Source: an uncultured Candidatus Peribacteria bacterium (GTDB lineage: Bacteria > Patescibacteriota > Gracilibacteria > UBA1369). Taken from it: 26,668 bases of DNA. Within the stretch, counting starts at the first letter, position 1; every line of letters starts with the position of its first letter. The stretch spans positions 1-26,668 of the forward strand of contig CAZZPB010000021.1 of assembly GCA_964655905.1 (NCBI GenBank), in the 5' to 3' direction. Positions 3,977-26,663 of the stretch are shown here, one piece after another. A model generated the notes under the pieces. That model searched no databases, was not told the origin of the DNA, and was given only the letters and a program-made list of their open reading frames with translations. Position numbers and translations under genes: made by a program.

Positions 3977-4788
3977 ACAGCGACGTCAAATTTAATAAAA
4001 GGATGGTGCTGATAGTTTTGGAGCTCAAAATCCTCATATTTTAGCTCATGGAAGGGTTTTTTTGTTATTTTGAGAATTGGGAGAGAATAAGGTTTGCGTT
4101 CCATCTGTTTTTTGAGGCCTTCAATGTGATTTAAATAAATATGGGCATCACCAAGAGTATGTGTAAAAATGCCGGGCTGCAAGCCACATTCCTGTGCTAT
4201 CATCATTAACAAAGTCGCGTAACTTGCGATGTTAAAAGGCACTCCCAGGGCGATGTCGGCGCTGCGCTGGTACAACTGCAAATCCAGCCTTCCATCCACG
4301 ACATAACACTGAAAAAGCAGGTGGCAGGGCGGCAACTTCATGCGGTCAAGGTCGGCAACATTCCACGCGCTCACGATTAAACGCCTGCTGTCCGGATTTT
4401 TTTTGATGCCATCAATAAGATTTTGAATTTGATCAATGTAATGGACATCATACTGTTTTTCTTGCTCATTCCAGGCGTATTTGTTCCATTTACGCCACTG
4501 GTAGCCGTAAATGGGTCCCAAGTCCCCTTTTTCATCAGCCCAGGCGTTCCAGATCGGCGTATGTTCAGCCAGATCATCATTAATATTTGTTGAACCGCGT
4601 AAAAACCACAACAATTCATATAAAACGCCGTCGTAGCGGATTTTTTTTGTTGTCAGCAGCGGGAATCCTTTCCTCAAATCATATTTTCGCTGTGCGCCAA
4701 AAATTGAGATCGTTCCAACGCCCGTGCGGTCTTTTTTTGTGATGCCGTTGCTTAAAACTTCCTGAACGAGACTAAGATACTGTTGCAT
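3973..4788 (-). CDS. thyA: Thymidylate synthase
   Basis: [47 protein letters not shown]. 4-bp overlap with folA. Confidence 0.98.
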
Positions 4789-4890
4789 GATTTTTGTTTA
4801 TTAATTCCGTTTTCATTGTATGAGAAAAATCTTGAAATGCAAATTGCGCTTTTTTATGCTACAATTAAAGGATAAATTTATTTATTTATT

Positions 4891-5478
4891 ATGAGCAACA
4901 ATCCTGAACAATCAGCCACTAAAGAGCGTGAATTCACATCCAGTGAAATTAATGATCGATATGAAGAATCTCTACGTGGTGTGGACTCAGAAACACAATC
5001 TTTTGTTAACAAAGTTGAAAACACACCAGAATGGAAAGCCTGGGTGGAAAAAGATTTGAAGATATTTTTACATAGTGAAGTTAAAAATAATGGAGCCGTT
5101 GCTAAAAGAACATTGAAAGACTTTGTAGAACGTTTGAAACTTGCATGGGACAGCGCTAAAACTGAAGAAAAAGAAGCGGCGCGGGCAAGGTGGCAAATTG
5201 CGGAAACAATTTTAGGTTTGCTGTTTCCTAAGGAAGGCATAACCGCTCCAGCGCAAGAGCAGGAGAAGACCGCCGTCCCCCTCTCGCGCAATGAACGGAT
5301 GGCTATGGGCGCCATTACAGGAATTGGAAGATGTGTCCGTGATGCGGTTTATAAGGTTTTAGAATGGACGGGTTTACGAAAAAGGCGCCACAAAACAGAA
5401 CCTGCGGCGGCAACGCCTTCCAATGTTGTTCCGTTACGTGGGGCAGAAAAACCGCCTGATGAACGTTTAGCCGCTTAA
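4891..5478 (+). CDS. Hypothetical charged, probably helical protein
   Basis: 195-aa ORF preceded by an extended -10 (TGcTACAAT, 4857-4865). No family recognised. Confidence 0.7.
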   Translation: MSNNPEQSATKEREFTSSEINDRYEESLRGVDSETQSFVNKVENTPEWKAWVEKDLKIFLHSEVKNNGAVAKRTLKDFVERLKLAWDSAKTEEKEAARARWQIAETILGLLFPKEGITAPAQEQEKTAVPLSRNERMAMGAITGIGRCVRDAVYKVLEWTGLRKRRHKTEPAAATPSNVVPLRGAEKPPDERLAA

Positions 5479-5506
5479 GTTTTGGATCTAGCAATACGAT
5501 CTCTCA

Positions 5507-5724
5507 AAAAACGCGCAACACAAACTTTAGGCCTATGTATGATTTTCGAATGGAATCAGCTTTCCATTGATCTATAAGCCATTATTGCTTAATCCATTTT
5601 GTCTTCGCCTTTATGACATTCATTAGAAGACAACCTTCAGATCTCAAACCCACTACCAAGCCTTTAAATCGTACGACCGCAGATACATTATCACTATTTT
5701 ATGAAAACTTTCTAAATTATTTCT
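5507..5724 (-). ncRNA. Candidate structured RNA, copy 1 (RNA ~5680 to 5506, promoter-like region 5687-5716)
   Basis: Homologous to 22973-23172, including an 18-bp exact block tcattagaagacaacctt. Stems pair through G-U only on the minus strand. Ends in a U-tract. Confidence 0.6.
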
Positions 5725-5786
5725 GAATTTTTCAAACTATTTGCCACAAGCCCTTAATTTTTTATTTTTTATGTTATTATATCCGC

Positions 5787-7432: not shown

Positions 7433-8182
7433 TCAGCGCCAGGCCCTAATTTTTTTAATTTCATCCCCAATAAACATTAATACCTCCTGTTTAAGGAATT
7501 TTCTTGTTTGATTAAAATCTTTTTTACCAATCAGGTGATTTAAATCTTCATCAAGCATGTTTTGTGTAACTTTTTTTTGAATAAAACCGTAAAGCTGTTC
7601 AAAAAAGCTTTTTACATTTGTTTTTCGTCTTTCTTCAATGATTTGCGGTAAATATGCATATCCGTCCCTAAAAAATGTGTGAATGTCAAAAATATCTCTT
7701 CCTGCTACTGACCTGTATTTCTCATATCTTTCTATTGCAGCCACCAGTTTATTGGCAAACATTGTAGGGATTGTTTGACAATAAAAAATCCGGTCAATTT
7801 CAGTAAAACGATATGGCTCATATTCATTTGAAACAGGCGGCGGATATGTAACATCAAAACGTAAAATACTTCTTTCACCGGGAATATTTTTATATCTCAA
7901 AAAAAATTGCGGCACTCTTTTACTGCGATCCTTGATTTCAAGTCCCAGTTCACTAAAAACTGCCTCCAGCTCCCTGTTTAATTTATCAATTTGTTCAGTA
8001 GTTGCCGGAAGCAGATCAAAGTCCAAATCAACAGAAAATCGTTCAATTATGCCTCTCATTGCCGCGCAGGTGCCGCCTTTAAAACGCAGCAAAGAAACCA
8101 GAAAAGTATGATCCGCCAATTTGCTCAGCACTCTATAAAGCCAGGCTTTATGGATGGCATCACCTGCTTTTGGTAAATCCAT
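7433..8182 (-). CDS. AbiEii-type nucleotidyltransferase toxin (type IV TA)
   Basis: FKGGTCAAM…RFSVDLDFD, ANKLVAA, RDIFDI. Confidence 0.88.
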   Translation of the reverse strand: MDLPKAGDAIHKAWLYRVLSKLADHTFLVSLLRFKGGTCAAMRGIIERFSVDLDFDLLPATTEQIDKLNRELEAVFSELGLEIKDRSKRVPQFFLRYKNIPGERSILRFDVTYPPPVSNEYEPYRFTEIDRIFYCQTIPTMFANKLVAAIERYEKYRSVAGRDIFDIHTFFRDGYAYLPQIIEERRKTNVKSFFEQLYGFIQKKVTQNMLDEDLNHLIGKKDFNQTRKFLKQEVLMFIGDEIKKIRAWR

Positions 8183-8750
8183 AACGTTTGGAAGTTAAAG
8201 GATAACCAATTGTTTTCTGTATCTCCCTAATTTTTGTCCAATCAATTGGCCGGTCGAAATGAAATTTTGGCATAAAATAAAGCATATCGGCAATTGCCCG
8301 CTCGACTGAAGCAACCCGTATTCCATCCATATTGTTAATACCAACAGGATTAAATAAAAATCTATTATTTGCTTTTCTGGATTTATACAAACAATCTCCC
8401 ACCTTAAATGTGTCTGATTTTGAACTGATAAATGTGAAAGAACCTGGTCTTTTTGATACATACCCTTCTCTATAAAGAATGCTTTCGGCGCTCAAATAGC
8501 AATAGGTGTGTAAAATCTTTGTCCCGAGCAATATGGGATCCAGGTTATCTGGTGGTAAAAGCGAATATAATCCTTTAAATAATCTATACAATAAGCCGGC
8601 ACTACAATACCGCTTTAGAGTGGTATACAAAGTGTTTTTGTTCTTGATAAGCCATAAATTAGCTAAATCACTTGTATGAAAAAGCTTCTCGTCCATCCTT
8701 GCCAACAAAGCGAAACGCTGTGCCTGTATATTGACTTTTCCTGTACTCAT
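8160..8750 (-). CDS. AbiEi-type antitoxin / wHTH regulator
   Basis: LYRLFKGLY, YLSAESIL, VASVERAIADMLY. Overlaps the AbiEii start. Start may be 8750 or 8768. Confidence 0.82.
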   Translation of the reverse strand: MSTGKVNIQAQRFALLARMDEKLFHTSDLANLWLIKNKNTLYTTLKRYCSAGLLYRLFKGLYSLLPPDNLDPILLGTKILHTYCYLSAESILYREGYVSKRPGSFTFISSKSDTFKVGDCLYKSRKANNRFLFNPVGINNMDGIRVASVERAIADMLYFMPKFHFDRPIDWTKIREIQKTIGYPLTSKRYGFTKSR

Positions 8751-8809
8751 GTGTACAGGATAATACAAGTAGATGCAAATTGCAAGCCCACGTGTGTCAT
8801 GCGTTATGC

Positions 8810-10064: not shown

Positions 10065-10112
10065 GGGTCTCGTCCCACGCAGCGGGATCGCCCGCTTAGC
10101 GGGGGGTGATGG
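10065..10112. repeat. Short derivative of the E1/E2 family (E4)
   Basis: gggtctcgtccc…gcccgcttagcgggg..tgat, shared with 21749-21783. Confidence 0.6.
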
Positions 10113-10284: not shown

Positions 10285-10701
10285 TTATTTCCCTTTGGCC
10301 TTTTGAACCTTCGTTTCGACCTTCTTCATAACCTTGGTCTCAGGTTTTTTCGTCTCAATTGCAGGTTTCTTCATTTTGGTTTCAGGCTTTTTCGTTTCCA
10401 TTGCCGGTTTCTTTTCAACTTTCTTCATCTCCTGCTTTTTGAGACCTTTCTTTAACCCTTCACCTCTTTGAAGAGCGTTTTCAGTGCCGGTAACTTTTGG
10501 CTTGGTTGTCATTACCGGAGGAGTAGTAACAGTCTTTGCAGGTTTTGTGACAGCCTTCACCGGAGGTGTAACAACCTTCACCGGAGATGTAACAGCTTTC
10601 ACCGGAGGTGTAGCGGTCTTTGTCGCACCAGCCTGGGCAAACACCGGAGCGGTGGAAAGCAGCATGGACAAAGCGATACCGATAGCGACGTATTTTTTCA
10701 T
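10285..10701 (-). CDS. Secreted Lys/Pro/Thr-rich low-complexity protein (paralog A)
   Basis: Signal peptide MKKYVAIGIALSMLLSTAPVFA, 7-aa PVKAVT repeats, KKP repeats. Confidence 0.85.
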   Translation of the reverse strand: MKKYVAIGIALSMLLSTAPVFAQAGATKTATPPVKAVTSPVKVVTPPVKAVTKPAKTVTTPPVMTTKPKVTGTENALQRGEGLKKGLKKQEMKKVEKKPAMETKKPETKMKKPAIETKKPETKVMKKVETKVQKAKGK

Positions 10702-10740
10702 TAAGTTATGGAGTTAAAAAATAAAAATGTTATTGGAACT

Positions 10741-11370
10741 TTATTTGTCTTTTACCTTTTTGAGCCTTTCTTCCGTCTTTTTTACTTTATTCTCGTATTT
10801 TTTTACTTCACCTTCCTGCTTTTCCATCCTTTTCTCTAATTTTTTGGTTTCCTTTGCTTTTCTTTCTTCTTTTTTCTCTTCACGTTCAGCCTTATTTTCA
10901 GTCTTTTTCTTTTCCCACTTTGCCTTATCTTCAGCCTTTTTCTTGTCTGTTTCAGCCCTCTTCTCGGCTATCTTCTTGTCCGTTTCAGCCCTCTTCTCAG
11001 CTATCTTCTTGTCTGTTTCAGCCCTCTTCTTATCCATCTCGCCACTCTTTTCAGGATTTTTCTTGTCCGTCTCGGCCCTCTTTTCAGCCCTCTTCTTGTC
11101 CAACTCAGCTCTCTTTTCAGCTCTCTTCTTGTCCAACTCGGACCTATTTCCTTCCTGTTTCTTGAGACCTTTTTTCAATCCCTCACCTCTTTTTAGAGCA
11201 TTTTCAGTGCCTGTGACCTTTTGTTCAGTCTTTGGAGGAGTAGTGGTGGCGGGAGTAGTAACCGCAGGAGTAGCAGCGGCAGGAGCGGTTGTTCCAGCTG
11301 TCTGCGCAAACACCGGCGCGGTGGAAAGCAGCATGGACAAAGCTATACTTATTGCAATGTATTTTTTCAT
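10741..11370 (-). CDS. Secreted Lys/Glu-rich coiled-coil repeat protein (paralog B)
   Basis: Signal peptide nearly identical to paralog A, with 11-aa AETDKKxAEKR repeats. Confidence 0.85.
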   Translation of the reverse strand: MKKYIAISIALSMLLSTAPVFAQTAGTTAPAAATPAVTTPATTTPPKTEQKVTGTENALKRGEGLKKGLKKQEGNRSELDKKRAEKRAELDKKRAEKRAETDKKNPEKSGEMDKKRAETDKKIAEKRAETDKKIAEKRAETDKKKAEDKAKWEKKKTENKAEREEKKEERKAKETKKLEKRMEKQEGEVKKYENKVKKTEERLKKVKDK

Positions 11371-11462
11371 ATATTTTTAGAGTAAAAAAATAAAATTAGT
11401 TTATATTGTGGAATATCCCAACCCGTGTGACCAACAATTATAACGTAAAACTACTAAAAATA

Positions 11463-17467: not shown

Positions 17468-18526
17468 ATGATAAACGATACTTATACACTGAACAAACGG
17501 CAGGATCACATATTGGATTTTATAGATAAAAAAGGAGACGCATCTATTTCTGAAATTTTCGCGGCTATATTCAAAAAAACCCGCGCTGTCGCTGAAATCA
17601 CTGTAAAAAGAGATCTCAAAAAATTGGTTGATTTGAATTTAATTGTTGCAAAAGGCGCCGGCAGAGCCGTGAAATATGAATTATCCCCGGCATATTCGGT
17701 TATAAGACCTGTTGATGTGGATAAATATTTTGAAAAGGAAATTGACGAACGGATGATACGGGAACGTTTCAATTTTCATGTGTTTTCACACCTCAAGTCC
17801 ATATTTTCGCGTGATGAAAAAATATTTTTACAAAAATTGAATAATAGTTATTTGAAAAAAGTGGGGCATCTGCCAAAAGATGTGTTAAAAAAAGAATTTG
17901 AAAGATTGACCATAGAGCTAAGCTGGAAATCGTCCAGAATTGAGGGTAACACCTATTCTTTGCTTGAAACAGAGCAGCTTTTAAAAGAAAACAGAGAAGC
18001 AGGGGGACATACCAAAGAGGAGGCTATCATGATTCTTAATCATAAAAAAACCCTGGATTATATACGCAATAATGTTCGGGGATTCAAATCTTTATCCTTA
18101 AAAAAGCTCGAAGAAATTCATTCTTTATTAATTGAAGGACTTGGCGTTTCAAAAAATGTCAGAAAGACAATGGTTAGAATTACCGGCACAAGATTTAAAC
18201 CTCTTGATAATCAATTTCAGATAACTGAATCGCTCAAAAAAGCATGCTCCCTTGTTAATCAGCGAAAAAATCCCTTTGAAAAAGCATTGATTATGATGCT
18301 TCTAATTGCGTACATTCAACCTTTCGTTGATGGAAATAAGCGGACAAGCCGCTTGGCTGGCAATGCTGTTCTTTTGGCAAATGGTTGCTGCCCTCTGTCA
18401 TACAGAAGCATCAACGAAATCGAATACAAGAAAGCAGTTTTAATTTTTTATGAACAAAATAATATTTCCTATTTTAAAAAACTCTTCTTACAGCAGTTTG
18501 AATTCGTTGTGAAGAATTATTTTTAG
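17468..18526 (+). CDS. Fic-domain protein with an N-terminal DeoR-like wHTH
   Basis: ITVKRDLKKLV…GAGRAVKY, WKSSRIEGN, YIQPFVDGNKRTSR. Confidence 0.9.
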   Translation: MINDTYTLNKRQDHILDFIDKKGDASISEIFAAIFKKTRAVAEITVKRDLKKLVDLNLIVAKGAGRAVKYELSPAYSVIRPVDVDKYFEKEIDERMIRERFNFHVFSHLKSIFSRDEKIFLQKLNNSYLKKVGHLPKDVLKKEFERLTIELSWKSSRIEGNTYSLLETEQLLKENREAGGHTKEEAIMILNHKKTLDYIRNNVRGFKSLSLKKLEEIHSLLIEGLGVSKNVRKTMVRITGTRFKPLDNQFQITESLKKACSLVNQRKNPFEKALIMMLLIAYIQPFVDGNKRTSRLAGNAVLLANGCCPLSYRSINEIEYKKAVLIFYEQNNISYFKKLFLQQFEFVVKNYF

Positions 18527-21748: not shown

Positions 21749-21792
21749 GGGTCTCGTCCCGCCCCGCTTAGCGGGGTGATAGGTTGCCCCCA
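21749..21792. repeat. Internally deleted derivative of the E1/E2 family (E3)
   Basis: gggtctcgt + ccccgc-tta-gcgggg + taggttgccccca. The last 13 nt are identical to 173-185, and the module order matches E1. Confidence 0.6.
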
Positions 21793-21860: not shown

Positions 21861-22961
21861 ATGTATTTTAAGCCAAAAATCGGGTTTGTGGTCTTAACAG
21901 GTATGCTCATATTACTGAGCGCGCCAGCAAATGCCAGCGCTGCGCAAGTAGGGACAGGTCGCAACCTGTCCCTACTTGCGCCCACGAATTTCACGCCAAA
22001 AACTTATATATCGCCGAAATATAACGCTTTTGACCATGATTATTATCGTGCGCCAAAATTAGCTGAAGGGGTTGATACGCCGCCCCAGGCTGATTTTTAC
22101 ATTTTCACCAACCAGGCAGGCTTTCAAAATTCCGCTACTGGAACAATTGAAACTGTCTTTACCTTCGATGCCAGCGCTTCAACAGACGCCGAAACGCCTG
22201 CTAGTATGCTAGAAGTTCGCTGGTATTTCGAAAACAGCGCTGCTCCGGATACTTATTTTTCAAGGGCAAAATCCACCCGCCATACCTTCAAAAAAGCAGG
22301 AACATATAACGTAAAACTTGAGGTATTGGATAAGGGCGGCAATATCGCTCAAATAAGTAAAAAAATTATAGTGGTCGAAAATACTTCTCCAATCCCTTTT
22401 TTTAAGGTTGAACCTGTGACCGGCACTGAAAATACTGTTTTTCATTTCGATACTTCCTTATCAAGAGACGATCAATATTTGGCTTCTCATCTGGAATACC
22501 GTTTTGACTGGGATAGCGATGGCAAATGGGACACCGCGTTTCAGAAAAAAACCCACTGGTATCATCGCTTTAACGCAACAGGCAATTATACAGTTACAAT
22601 GGAAGTAAAAGATCCGGACAATCAAAAAGCAGCGCTTAAAAAAGATATTGTTGTTGGCGCAAATACTCCTCCTGTTGCCAGTTTTTCTGTACGCGCACTG
22701 CGTTCATTGGACAAAAAAAATAACAACATTGATTATGAATTTGACGCAGCAGCAAGCTTCGACAGGGAAACGCCTCAAAAAGAATTATTTTATCGTTGGG
22801 ATTTTCATTATAATGGCCCGAATGACATTATTTATGACACAGCGTGGAGCCATTCTCCAAAATCTTTCGCCCGTTTCGAAAAATCTGAAAAATCCGTGGT
22901 AAAGTTGGAGGTTATGGATGCGGATGGAGATATCTCAAGCGCTATATATCGGATCGAGTAA
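21861..22961 (+). CDS. Secreted protein with three PKD domains
   Basis: Signal peptide, then three units of F-x-FDAS-x-S-x-D…(Y)RW(D/Y)…G-x-Y-x-V-x-(L/M)EV-x-D. Confidence 0.88.
   Translation: MYFKPKIGFVVLTGMLILLSAPANASAAQVGTGRNLSLLAPTNFTPKTYISPKYNAFDHDYYRAPKLAEGVDTPPQADFYIFTNQAGFQNSATGTIETVFTFDASASTDAETPASMLEVRWYFENSAAPDTYFSRAKSTRHTFKKAGTYNVKLEVLDKGGNIAQISKKIIVVENTSPIPFFKVEPVTGTENTVFHFDTSLSRDDQYLASHLEYRFDWDSDGKWDTAFQKKTHWYHRFNATGNYTVTMEVKDPDNQKAALKKDIVVGANTPPVASFSVRALRSLDKKNNNIDYEFDAAASFDRETPQKELFYRWDFHYNGPNDIIYDTAWSHSPKSFARFEKSEKSVVKLEVMDADGDISSAIYRIE
21942..21981. repeat. GTAG-type palindrome inside the PKD gene
   Basis: gcgcaagtagggacaggt-cgca-acctgtccctacttgcgc (18-bp arms). Confidence 0.85.
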
Positions 22962-22972
22962 TTTTTAATTAG

Positions 22973-23172
22973 AAAAACGCGCAGCCCAAACCTTAGGCCT
23001 ATATATGGTTTTTGCCTTCTATAAGCCATTTGTTCTTCAATCCCTTTCCGTCTTCACCTTTTACATATCATTAGAAGACAACCTTAGAATCTCAAACCTA
23101 CTACCAAGCCTTTTAATCGTACGACCAATTACGTATTATCACGTTTTTATGAAATCCATCTAAATTATTTCT
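22973..23172 (-). ncRNA. Candidate structured RNA, copy 2 (RNA ~23128 to 22973, promoter-like region 23135-23164)
   Basis: Homologous to 5507-5724, with pairing-preserving substitutions and a shorter variable loop. Confidence 0.6.
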
Positions 23173-23249
23173 TAAAAATTGTGTATATCGCAGCCGGAAT
23201 TTGTGGTACAATTACGAGAGCGGTAAAAAAATTTAATAAAATCAAACTT

Positions 23250-24206
23250 ATGCAAAATACTTTTAAGACAAATGTGGCTCCAATTATCTCTTCTTTGCTG
23301 GCTCTTGCCATACTTGCCCTGCCGGCGTTCGCGGCCACAGGACCGGGCGCTACGCCGCCCAGCGGCAATGTTGGAGCAAATTTTAATAGTATTTATGCTG
23401 AGAACTCAGACGGTAAGACCGGTGTCACTGGTGTGAGTACTGGCGGCGTGAGTGATGGTGACGGCGTTAGGGGCATTGGAGGTGGTGATGGTATTGTGGA
23501 TGGTGCCGGAGGCATTGGCGGAAATTTTACCGGTAAACGTTTCGGCGTTCGGTCACGAGTAAATAGCTCTACTGTTGGAGTAGCCGCCGGACATTTTGAA
23601 AATGTTGCCAGTGGCTATATAGTTGACGTTGGATTAGCTGATCTTGCCCTACAGTCACAGGGGCCAGTTACAGTTAAAGGGAAACTTACAACTGAAGGTG
23701 ATTCTTCTTTTCTTGGATATTTAAGTGCACAGAGTAAATCTGGAACCCTCCCCGCCGGCTATTTTAAAAGCAACACTGGTCTTGTTGAGAATGAAGTAAA
23801 TCTTGCAGGCTCTAGTAATGCTATTTTAACCAAAGGAGATATTACTGTAAGTTCTGGAGATATTAATGTATCGTCTGGAAAAATAACTGTTGGTTCTGTA
23901 GCAAGCATTTCGAGTACTGGCCATATCAAAGCAGCAGGTGGCGTCGGACGATTTTATACAGCTGTAGGCTCTTCTATCCTTGTCAGTGCTGGCCAGTATG
24001 TGTTTATAACTTCTAAATGTGATGACTTAACGAAGCATAGAAGAATAAGTTGTGGTTTTACTACATCAGCTTCAAATGTAGTCCAAGCTGACATGTCGGA
24101 CTCAAGTTATGCAAACCAGTGCGATTTCTATGTAAAAAATCTTAATACTGGTATATCAGATGCCAGTGTTACTGGTGTAGCTACATGTTTTGACCCCAAT
24201 GGTTAA
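23250..24206 (+). CDS. Secreted Gly/Ser/Val-rich beta-repeat protein with a 4-Cys C-terminal domain
   Basis: Signal peptide ending …LALPAFA, GVxG repeats, TxxGDIxV repeats, ends TCFDPNG*. Start reassigned to MQNT. Confidence 0.8.
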   Translation: MQNTFKTNVAPIISSLLALAILALPAFAATGPGATPPSGNVGANFNSIYAENSDGKTGVTGVSTGGVSDGDGVRGIGGGDGIVDGAGGIGGNFTGKRFGVRSRVNSSTVGVAAGHFENVASGYIVDVGLADLALQSQGPVTVKGKLTTEGDSSFLGYLSAQSKSGTLPAGYFKSNTGLVENEVNLAGSSNAILTKGDITVSSGDINVSSGKITVGSVASISSTGHIKAAGGVGRFYTAVGSSILVSAGQYVFITSKCDDLTKHRRISCGFTTSASNVVQADMSDSSYANQCDFYVKNLNTGISDASVTGVATCFDPNG

Positions 24207-24820: not shown

Positions 24821-24925
24821 GTTGTATGAAAGTGAATAAATAAGTTGATAAACGTCTTTGGAAATATTGTAAGGAAAATCTTTCCAAAGCTCAAGCCAGA
24901 TTATCTGGTAAAGGTATTTATTGTT

Positions 24926-24957
24926 TTGCTTTACTTTAAAGATAATTGCTTTACTTT
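24926..24957 (+). promoter_or_regulatory. Probable autoregulatory operator of the AbrB/VapC pair
   Basis: ttgctttacttt repeated at 24926 and 24946 (20-bp phase), with an inverted gtaaag just upstream. Confidence 0.4.
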
Positions 24958-25010
24958 TTTCAATTTTTACCTTATTATCAGGGTATAGTAGCTTTTATTC
25001 TAACTTTATT

Positions 25011-25292
25011 ATGAGCGACATATCTAAATCTTCGCTTTCGGAAAAAGCCCAAACAACTGTTCCTGCTGAAATACGTAAAATGTTTAACGTCAGGGCTAAA
25101 GACCAGATTCTTTGGGTGCCGGTCGGTCCCGGCATGATCAGCCTTGTAGCTGTAAAAAAGTATAAAAAAGGGAGTTGGACAAAGAACATTTGCGGAAAAT
25201 ACTCAAATAATAAAGTTGATGCCGTTCAAAGTCTTTTGGATGACCGAAAGAAAGATCTTATTCTGGAAAAACGTGGATTTCTTAATAAATAA
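25011..25292 (+). CDS. AbrB/MazE/SpoVT-family antitoxin
   Basis: SSLSEKAQTTVPAEIRKMFNVRAKDQILW. Start reassigned to MSDI. Confidence 0.85.
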   Translation: MSDISKSSLSEKAQTTVPAEIRKMFNVRAKDQILWVPVGPGMISLVAVKKYKKGSWTKNICGKYSNNKVDAVQSLLDDRKKDLILEKRGFLNK

Positions 25293-25294
25293 AG

Positions 25295-25702
25295 GTGATT
25301 GACATTCTTGATGCTTCAGCCCTTCTGGCTTTTATAAAAAAAGAAAAGGGCTATCAAAAAGTGGAACAATTATTTCTTAATGCCGAATCAAGCGGCAAAA
25401 GTTTGTTCATGCATCAGGTAAATTTTATAGAATTTATTTATAAAGCACGGCAAATTTATAACATGGAAAAATTTAATGAGATTATTGCTGATTTGCAGAC
25501 TCCAATATTTGGCATTATGAATTACATGGAGGCCGATATTGGGTTTTATTGTGGCCATCTAAAGGCCGAGTATTATTTGTCGCTTGGAGATGCCATGGGC
25601 CTGGCGTACACAAAAATCATGGAAGGCAGATTTTGGTCAGCAGACAAGGCTCTATTGCCAATAGCCAATAAAGAAAAAATTGAACTTAATTTGTTCCGTT
25701 AA
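25295..25702 (+). CDS. PIN-domain toxin (VapC family)
   Basis: ILDASALLAF…E-KG, VNFIE, LSLGDAMGLA, WSADK. GTG start 2 nt after the antitoxin stop. Confidence 0.9.
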   Translation: MIDILDASALLAFIKKEKGYQKVEQLFLNAESSGKSLFMHQVNFIEFIYKARQIYNMEKFNEIIADLQTPIFGIMNYMEADIGFYCGHLKAEYYLSLGDAMGLAYTKIMEGRFWSADKALLPIANKEKIELNLFR

Positions 25703-26641: not shown

Positions 26642-26663
26642 GAATCCCCGCTTAGCGGGGTTC
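26642..26663. repeat. REP-like hairpin at the window end
   Basis: gaatccccgc-tta-gcggggttc, same core as 21762-21776. Confidence 0.7.

Follow-up and report, generated by a model that had tools for sequence, protein, structure and literature searches.

OmrA and OmrB of enterobacteria are adjacent, paralogous base-pairing small RNAs (sRNAs) of ~85 nt that depend on Hfq and end in a canonical terminator hairpin. The unit described here, present twice in the window (the whole stretch of 26,668 nucleotides that was analysed), resembles them in having two paralogs, each with a promoter-like site of its own, a near-identical 5' part, a diverged centre and an end in a U-run. However, its copies lie 17.5 kb apart, would be ~160-175 nt long, have no strong terminator hairpin, are Rfam-negative and bear no sequence relationship to OmrA/OmrB. 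The 6S RNAs (RF00013 and related families) are of similar size, are likewise encoded by stand-alone genes and sometimes come as two paralogs, but the unit shows no match to a 6S covariance model, no rod fold and no conservation at the loci of relatives. The omega RNAs of TnpB and IscB and the bridge RNAs of IS110 are structured RNAs of 150-250 nt that accompany DNA moving between sites, which is also suggested for the unit. These RNAs are encoded in, or overlap, a transposon with a protein gene, whereas the window has no such gene, and the unit carries its own promoter-like site and U-run without element ends. Lastly, the unit is comparable with MITE-like elements or 'mobile promoters' in that it is short (~220-285 bp), occupies two intergenic insertion sites and is missing in relatives. 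In contrast to such elements, it has neither terminal inverted repeats nor a consistent target-site duplication, and its conservation is internal and not terminal.

The window is a piece of a Peregrinibacteria/Gracilibacteria-like chromosome (candidate phyla radiation), its best protein matches being to such bacteria, and encodes the housekeeping functions Suf, DHFR, ThyA, TrxB, RNase III, NusB, YceD and Alr. Peregrinibacteria have tiny genomes and few known regulators, and a full-text literature search returned no described regulatory sRNA from them. Judged by its sequence, the unit is a plausible new small-RNA family, so far seen in this organism only, and a well-formed candidate. If validated, a lineage-specific sRNA pair near genes for secreted proteins would be a first handle on RNA-based regulation in this group; if the unit is mobile, it would also illustrate the spread of new RNA genes.

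Two copies of one unit

An earlier note on this DNA had claimed that two stretches 17.5 kb apart align end to end, which is borne out by alignment on the minus strand (~81% identity), and each of the five exact blocks quoted in it is found in both copies. Across the unit, the copies agree at 160 of 198 ungapped columns (81%) and are separated by one indel of 19 nt and two small ones of 1 and 2 nt.

5506-5724, minus strand: copy 1, whole unit, comprising promoter-like block, RNA body and U-run; nhmmer E = 3e-74, covariance model 213.6 bits
22973-23172, minus strand: copy 2, whole unit; nhmmer E = 2e-65, covariance model 183 bits

A 20-nt probe taken from the 5' block finds the two copies alone in the window when up to 3 mismatches are allowed and has 0 matches in shuffled sequence, and neither nhmmer nor a covariance model detects a third copy in the window. 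The longest exact stretch common to both copies is shorter than 31 nt, and the mismatches between them are clustered (permutation p ~0.02). The repeat is no assembly artefact, since the independent Logan assembly of run ERR3478687 contains a contig (L186) that is identical to the window over 22888-23091, which takes in part of copy 2. Two short Logan contigs of this run, from the same population, are broken within the units: L186 ends at window position ~23091 and L187 starts at ~5703. These breaks could reflect low coverage, or more copies elsewhere in that genome.

Promoter-like block, 5' block and 3' end

Both units begin, on the minus strand, with a block in which 33 of 38 positions are the same in the two copies and which holds two hexamers in the arrangement TTTAGA-N18-GATAAT.

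5687-5724, minus strand: copy 1 promoter-like block, AGAAATAATTTAGA; -35 TTTAGA at 5716-5711 and -10 GATAAT at 5692-5687 (consensus scan)
23135-23172, minus strand: copy 2 promoter-like block; -35 TTTAGA at 23164-23159 and -10 GATAAT at 23140-23135 (consensus scan and alignment)

The hexamers, already named in the earlier note, lie at 5716-5687 and 23164-23135, and their sequence, spacing and offset are kept in both copies, as a consensus match to a promoter. The -35 box is weak and the spacer measures 18 nt. Sigma-70-type promoters are in use here, given that the tRNA-Val gene of the window has the canonical promoter TTGAyw...TAyAAT. Immediately after the -10 box, similarity is lost, with 1 of 8 positions matching between the copies (5686-5679 in copy 1). 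Conserved sequence resumes with GGTCGTACGATT, which had been placed about 8 nt past the -10 box and lies exactly 8 nt downstream of it (5678-5667 and 23126-23115), within a near-invariant block.

5641-5678, minus strand: copy 1 near-invariant 38-nt 5' block, opening with GGUCGUACGAUU; 36/38 positions identical between copies
23089-23126, minus strand: copy 2 near-invariant 38-nt 5' block; located by alignment, with the probe unique to the two copies

The consensus of this block is GGTCGTACGATTwAAAGGCTTGGTAGTrGGTTTGAGAT, the two copies differing at the two ambiguous positions. Counting G-U pairs, the RNA form of its opening, GGUCGUACGAUU, is complementary to itself along 12 nt; alternatively, it can be drawn as a GGUC-GUAC-GAUU mini-hairpin of 4-5 bp with a GUAC loop.

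At the other end, the UGCGCG-U5/6 terminus reported in the earlier note is present as read, with the U-run after UGCGCG kept in both copies.

5506-5517, minus strand: copy 1 3' end, UGCGCG followed by six U (read directly)
22973-22983, minus strand: copy 2 3' end, UGCGCG followed by five U (read directly)

A terminator scan found no local hairpin before the U-run of copy 1 and, in copy 2, a weak terminator-like hairpin at 22999-22983 with 7 pairs, 3 of them G-C. Genuine terminators in the window, for instance the one after tRNA-Leu, are strong hairpins, unlike the 3' end of the unit. A long-range helix between the two ends, formed by CGUACGA with UUUG..UGCG and ending at UGCGC, is possible in both copies. 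The clearly conserved unit stops at the T-run in both cases, and weak similarity continues for ~25 nt further, which makes the true 3' boundary uncertain.

On the plus strand, a four-codon mini-ORF of the form ATG AAA nnn nTC TAA (MKTF / MKSI) occurs at 5693-5707 and 23141-23155. It is built from the conserved promoter spacer and -35 box, lacks a Shine-Dalgarno sequence and is probably a coincidence.

Predicted RNA structure and strand

The minus-strand RNA is predicted to form one helix in common to both copies at high probability, stem A, and a second candidate helix, stem C, whose pairing differs between them.

5599-5633, minus strand: copy 1 stem A, UUGUCUUC (5633-5626) with GAAGACAA (5606-5599), 19-nt loop; pair probabilities 0.71-0.98
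23048-23081, minus strand: copy 2 stem A, UUGUCUUC (23081-23074) with GAAGACGG (23055-23048); pair probabilities 0.89-1.0
5530-5580, minus strand: copy 1 candidate stem C, GGCUUAU (5580-5574) with AUAGGCC (5536-5530); seven pairs possible
22996-23027, minus strand: copy 2 stem C, GGCUUAU (23027-23021) with AUAGGCC (23002-22996), short arm; pair probability 0.98-0.99

For stem A, an 8-bp hairpin stem also drawn in the earlier note, predicted pair probabilities lie between 0.7 and 1.0 in the two copies, and it alone reaches high probability in both. Its partner strand reads GAAGAC(AA/GG) and its loop differs between the copies. Two U-A pairs of copy 1 become U-G in copy 2 (one-sided changes, alignment columns 84 and 85); such changes are tolerated only on the minus strand and hence count for an RNA gene, and stem A itself is present in the consensus folds of both strands. 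An adjoining helix that both copies could form reads GAUCU/GGAUU in copy 1 and, with one pair more, GAUUCU/GGGAUU in copy 2. The GGCUUAU/AUAGGCC stem and the difference in the length of the arm that it closes are also real: copy 1 has an AUGGAA/UUCCAU hairpin at 5567-5550, and the arm of copy 2 is shorter by 19 nt. A second GGCUU near the 5' end, previously mentioned as a possible competitor for AGGCC, turns out to be a serious one. In copy 1, pairing of AGGCC with the 5' AGGCUUG is favoured over GGCUUAU by 8 kcal/mol (-40.6 vs -32.6 kcal/mol), whereas in copy 2 the GGCUUAU pairing is favoured by ~6 kcal/mol (-33.9 vs -28.2 kcal/mol).

The defined multi-stem structure originally proposed is not supported by this comparison. 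Minimum-energy topologies differ between the copies, the only helices consistent between them are stem A and the adjacent GAU(U)CU/GG(G)AUU helix, and the G- and U-rich strand makes dozens of alternative helices of 5-8 pairs compatible with both. Two sequences are too few to settle the global fold.

With respect to strand, the RNAalifold consensus has an energy of -21.65 kcal/mol and 39 pairs on the minus strand and -9.92 kcal/mol and 13 pairs on the plus strand. In the minus-strand fold, one pair is changed on both sides and about ten on one side, in a comparison of two sequences only. The pairs had been said to work on the minus strand alone, which is an overstatement: stems A and C persist in weakened form on the plus strand, although the consensus fold is clearly better on the minus strand. 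Single-sequence folding z-scores for copies 1 and 2 are -0.7 and -1.2 on the minus strand, which is unexceptional, and -2.6 and -0.3 on the plus strand. What makes sense only on the minus strand is the combination of hexamers, their spacing, the fixed offset from the conserved body and the terminal T-run.

Coding potential and known RNA families

No ORF is conserved between the copies, and every reading frame is disrupted by the three indels (1, 2 and 19 nt). The statement that the family was not recognised stands now that Rfam has been consulted. At the gathering threshold, Rfam 15 identifies two tRNAs and nothing else in the whole window, and in E-value mode, with both copies and both strands searched, nothing comes near a family threshold; the best matches, ES003 (19.7 bits, threshold 37), SNORD45 (14.7) and snoU19 (15.9), are all at chance level.

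Two of the identities suggested earlier fare poorly. There is no Rfam 6S match up to an E-value of 10, and the minimum-energy and consensus folds of both copies are branched, with no rod made of a closing stem and central bubble. As for a nuclease or recombinase guide scaffold, genes for a transposase, TnpB, IscB, IS110, Cas proteins or a reverse transcriptase (RT) are all absent from the 26.7-kb window. The search for tnpB and iscB, the partners of omega RNAs, covered all sizeable ORFs of the window with Pfam and NCBIfam, and no IS110-type gene that could accompany a bridge RNA was found there. The minus-strand RNA heads toward the 3' end of an unrelated convergent gene, and this gene end, with no RT in the window, is what lies downstream on the minus strand where a retron msr-msd would be followed by its enzyme.

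Genomic context and related genomes

Copy 1 is flanked by the stop codon of a gene for a 195-aa protein on one side and by the promoter of a lipoprotein-type SNase nuclease gene on the other; for copy 2, the flanks are the stop codon of a PKD-domain gene and the promoter of a gene for a secreted 318-aa protein. Both units are antisense to both neighbours, each pair being two plus-strand genes, and the products of both downstream genes have signal peptides. The mechanically called ORF beyond copy 2 opens at GTG 23181, but within 23181-23252 there is an ATG at 23250 that is followed by the clear signal peptide MQNTFKTNVAPIISSLLALAILALPAFA and preceded by the conserved promoter TGGTACAAT; the true gene is thus probably 23250-24206.

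Three proteins, namely RNase III, the SNase-family nuclease and the PKD protein, served to locate the loci of relatives, and their homologs were collected together with flanking DNA in about six different genomes. Synteny is good, with neighbouring proteins 55-70% identical, and the intergenic regions at the syntenic sites measure 23-154 nt. Three relatives (L133, L136 and L137) have 23-84 nt between the two genes of the copy 1 site, vs 308 nt in the window, and the additional sequence appears as a clean gap.

5479-5763, unstranded: window-only segment at the copy 1 site, 285 nt; clean gap in a three-way alignment with L136 and L133

The flanks of this gap, GAACGTTTAGCCGCTTAA and ATTTTTTrTGTTATTAT...ATG, are conserved in L136 and L133. 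At the copy 2 site, L130, L131 and L185 carry 115-154 nt, which include a canonical terminator on the plus strand and, for the next gene, the conserved promoter TGGTAnAAT; L183 has 25 nt. Neither nhmmer --max nor a covariance model found a homolog of the unit in ~100 kb of the relatives' loci. The absence of the unit from the same sites in every relative fetched indicates that both copies are lineage-specific insertions. As the neighbours keep their own conserved promoters outside the unit, and relatives do without it, the unit is best seen as a separate, added transcription unit and not as a regulatory region of its neighbours. The suggestion of a mobile sRNA is hence strengthened in so far as both copies are insertions relative to related genomes, but terminal inverted repeats were not found at either unit. 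The direct repeats on either side are weak, imperfect and unequal: that of copy 1, AGCC(G)CTTAAnTTTT, is ~14 nt long and includes an indel, and that of copy 2 is the 7-nt TATATCG.

That the sequence downstream of copy 2 might be displaced PKD codons was considered and rejected; the sequence in question, TTTGTGGTACAAT, is the promoter of the downstream gene and is common to L130, L131 and L185. The closest relative at the copy 2 site is L183, a MAG from Hainich groundwater (GCA_964360095.1), in which restriction-enzyme-like ORFs of the HinfI and EcoO109I families (4491-5697 of that locus) replace the gene downstream of the PKD protein. The copy 2 junction is a hotspot for gene-content change.

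Searches for homologs and targets

The GTDB genomes are the likeliest place for relatives of the unit. A pattern that was too loose for an effective search, TCGTACGAN{3,7}GGCTTGG, gave at least 120 chance matches in them, and none of those listed came with another block of the RNA. In the JGI metagenomes, the exact 18-mer AAAGGCTTGGTAGTNGGTT from the most conserved block had 21 matches, and in IMG/VR three blocks had 6, 0 and 24 matches, all of them due to chance; phage and plasmid records gave no match with blastn in 'distant' mode. The DNA collections scanned for homologs excluded the window's own contig and its source, which makes the negative result weaker than it appears. A full-text literature search returned nothing relevant for fragments of the unit's sequence or for small RNAs of candidate phyla radiation bacteria. 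The window has no site complementary to the 5' block, and duplex energies, computed for every translation start region of the window, say little about targets given the G- and U-rich RNA.

A candidate small RNA gene pair and its alternatives

The blocks of the unit are 87-95% identical between copies and lie beside stretches of near-random divergence (the stretch after the -10 box, the loop of stem A and the arm). As far as two sequences allow, this patchy conservation is the trace to be expected of purifying selection on a promoter and its RNA product after an old duplication. Together with the strand evidence, it favours two independently transcribed small RNAs over the other readings. Our hypothesis is that each unit is a small non-coding RNA gene transcribed on its own, that the two are paralogs and that their family is not yet described; we give this an even chance of being correct. 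Transcription as such, the ends of the RNAs and a role as trans-acting regulators are what we infer. The RNAs would be made from the minus strand, with lengths of ~175 nt (copy 1) and ~156 nt (copy 2), from a sigma-70-type promoter within each unit; transcription would start a few bases upstream of GGUCGUACGAUU and end at the U-run after UGCGCG. The constant 5' domain, comprising the mini-hairpin or self-complementary 12-mer and then the G/U-rich AAAGGCUUGGUAGU.GGUUUGAGAU, is likely a functional surface, and could interact with its partner either as a target-pairing seed or as a protein-binding site. Stem A and the adjacent GAU(U)CU/GG(G)AUU helix may provide a structural scaffold, with the arm closed by GGCUUAU/AUAGGCC free to vary, and the unit would have been copied into two intergenic sites in this lineage. 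The independently transcribed RNA put forward in the earlier note is thus retained in part: the self-contained minus-strand unit, the promoter-like site, the T-run and the lack of a coding frame speak for it, and the ordinary folding z-scores and the missing strong terminator hairpin against it. Also weighing against the sRNA reading are the disagreement of the predicted folds, the weak -35 box with its 18-nt spacer, the uncertain 3' boundary, the lack of homologs in the collections scanned and the lack of a target for the 5' block in the window.

The alternatives rank, by weight, from a DNA-level element through an RNA partner of an enzyme and a plus-strand cis element to a 6S-like RNA. The unit might act at the DNA level only, as a small mobile element of the non-autonomous kind or as what a duplication left behind; it would then have no RNA function of its own, and its promoter and terminator features would be incidental in AT-rich intergenic DNA. 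This is unlikely, although the insertion of both copies relative to relatives, the short direct repeats flanking each of them, the unremarkable minus-strand folding statistics and the two same-population Logan contigs that break off within the units, as can happen at repeats, would all fit. Against such an element, terminal inverted repeats are absent, the direct repeats on either side are imperfect and differ in length (a 7-mer match being expected by chance, ~0.4, in windows of this size), no transposase is nearby and the window holds just two copies. The block-wise conservation, with near-random divergence between the blocks, points instead to selection on specific segments. A plus-strand cis element between co-directional genes, acting as a 3' UTR, a terminator/insulator or a leader for the secreted-protein genes, would account for the position of both units between two plus-strand genes, for the signal peptides in both downstream gene products and for the canonical plus-strand terminator that relatives have in place of copy 2. 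Also, stem C is followed by a moderately U-rich tract on the plus strand, and the plus-strand z-score of copy 1 is -2.6. However, that of copy 2 is -0.3, the plus-strand consensus fold is weak (-9.92 kcal/mol, 13 pairs), stems A and C acquire C-A mismatches on this strand, and the conserved hexamers, their spacing and the T-run fit the minus strand only. The promoters of the downstream genes are, moreover, conserved in relatives that lack the unit, and we consider a cis element quite improbable.

Returning to an RNA product of the minus strand, the unit could encode a scaffold or guide for an enzyme encoded elsewhere (an RNA-guided nuclease, a recombinase or an RT), the two sites reflecting the mobility of that system. 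In the known cases of omega and bridge RNAs, the RNA is contiguous with its protein gene or with the element end, whereas TnpB, IscB, IS110, Cas, Tas and RT genes are absent within 26.7 kb. Moreover, the most variable parts of the unit are a hairpin loop and an arm, no terminal guide segment adjoins the flanking DNA, and the U-run end falls inside the unit. The size of 155-175 nt, the constant domain with a variable arm, two insertion sites specific to the lineage and the absence from Rfam would suit such a partner, and one report describes RNA-guided systems in candidate phyla radiation bacteria, e.g. TIGR-Tas (PMC12045711). On balance this explanation is improbable. By analogy with the two 6S RNAs of Bacillus, a divergent 6S-like pair binding RNA polymerase might be imagined from two ~160-175-nt paralogs, each with a promoter-like site and with 5' and 3' ends that can pair in the consensus fold. 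The branched folds and the failure to match any Rfam 6S model argue against it, as does the absence of the unit from the syntenic sites and ~100 kb of relatives' DNA, given that 6S is a conserved housekeeping RNA, and we regard this as very unlikely and the least probable of the alternatives. A more speculative extension of the small RNA gene pair, to which we attach a slim chance, is that the unit is an RNA gene cassette of candidate phyla radiation bacteria, self-contained and mobile, which would spread without an adjacent transposase. Such a cassette might be the cargo or partner of an RNA-guided or reverse-transcription-based system elsewhere, or might use an unknown copy-and-paste process, with the constant 5' domain as its recognition module.

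Other repeats and gene clusters in the window

The window contains further repeats that are distinct from the unit. A 16-nt palindrome, CCCCGCTTAGCGGGG(T), occurs in three intergenic copies, upstream of tRNA-Leu (10090-10105), upstream of the PKD gene (21762-21777) and downstream of tRNA-Val (26646-26661), and looks like a small repeated hairpin element. Within 10285-11395, the minus-strand ORFs 10285-10701 and 10741-11370 share segments of 69-107 nt with 82-83% identity; the latter ORF contains seven 33-nt tandem repeats (10830-11168) and weakly matches the repetitive basic protein Asr. A 28-nt direct repeat (2454-2481 and 2626-2653; 96% identical, 172 nt apart) spans the overlap of the cysteine desulfurase and NifU-like genes, where a local duplication may have produced it. 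Interspersed with the housekeeping genes are several of toxin-antitoxin type, namely AbiEii/AbiEi (7433-8768), a Fic/DOC protein with an HTH domain (17468-18526) and a MazE-like antitoxin with a PIN toxin (24921-25702).
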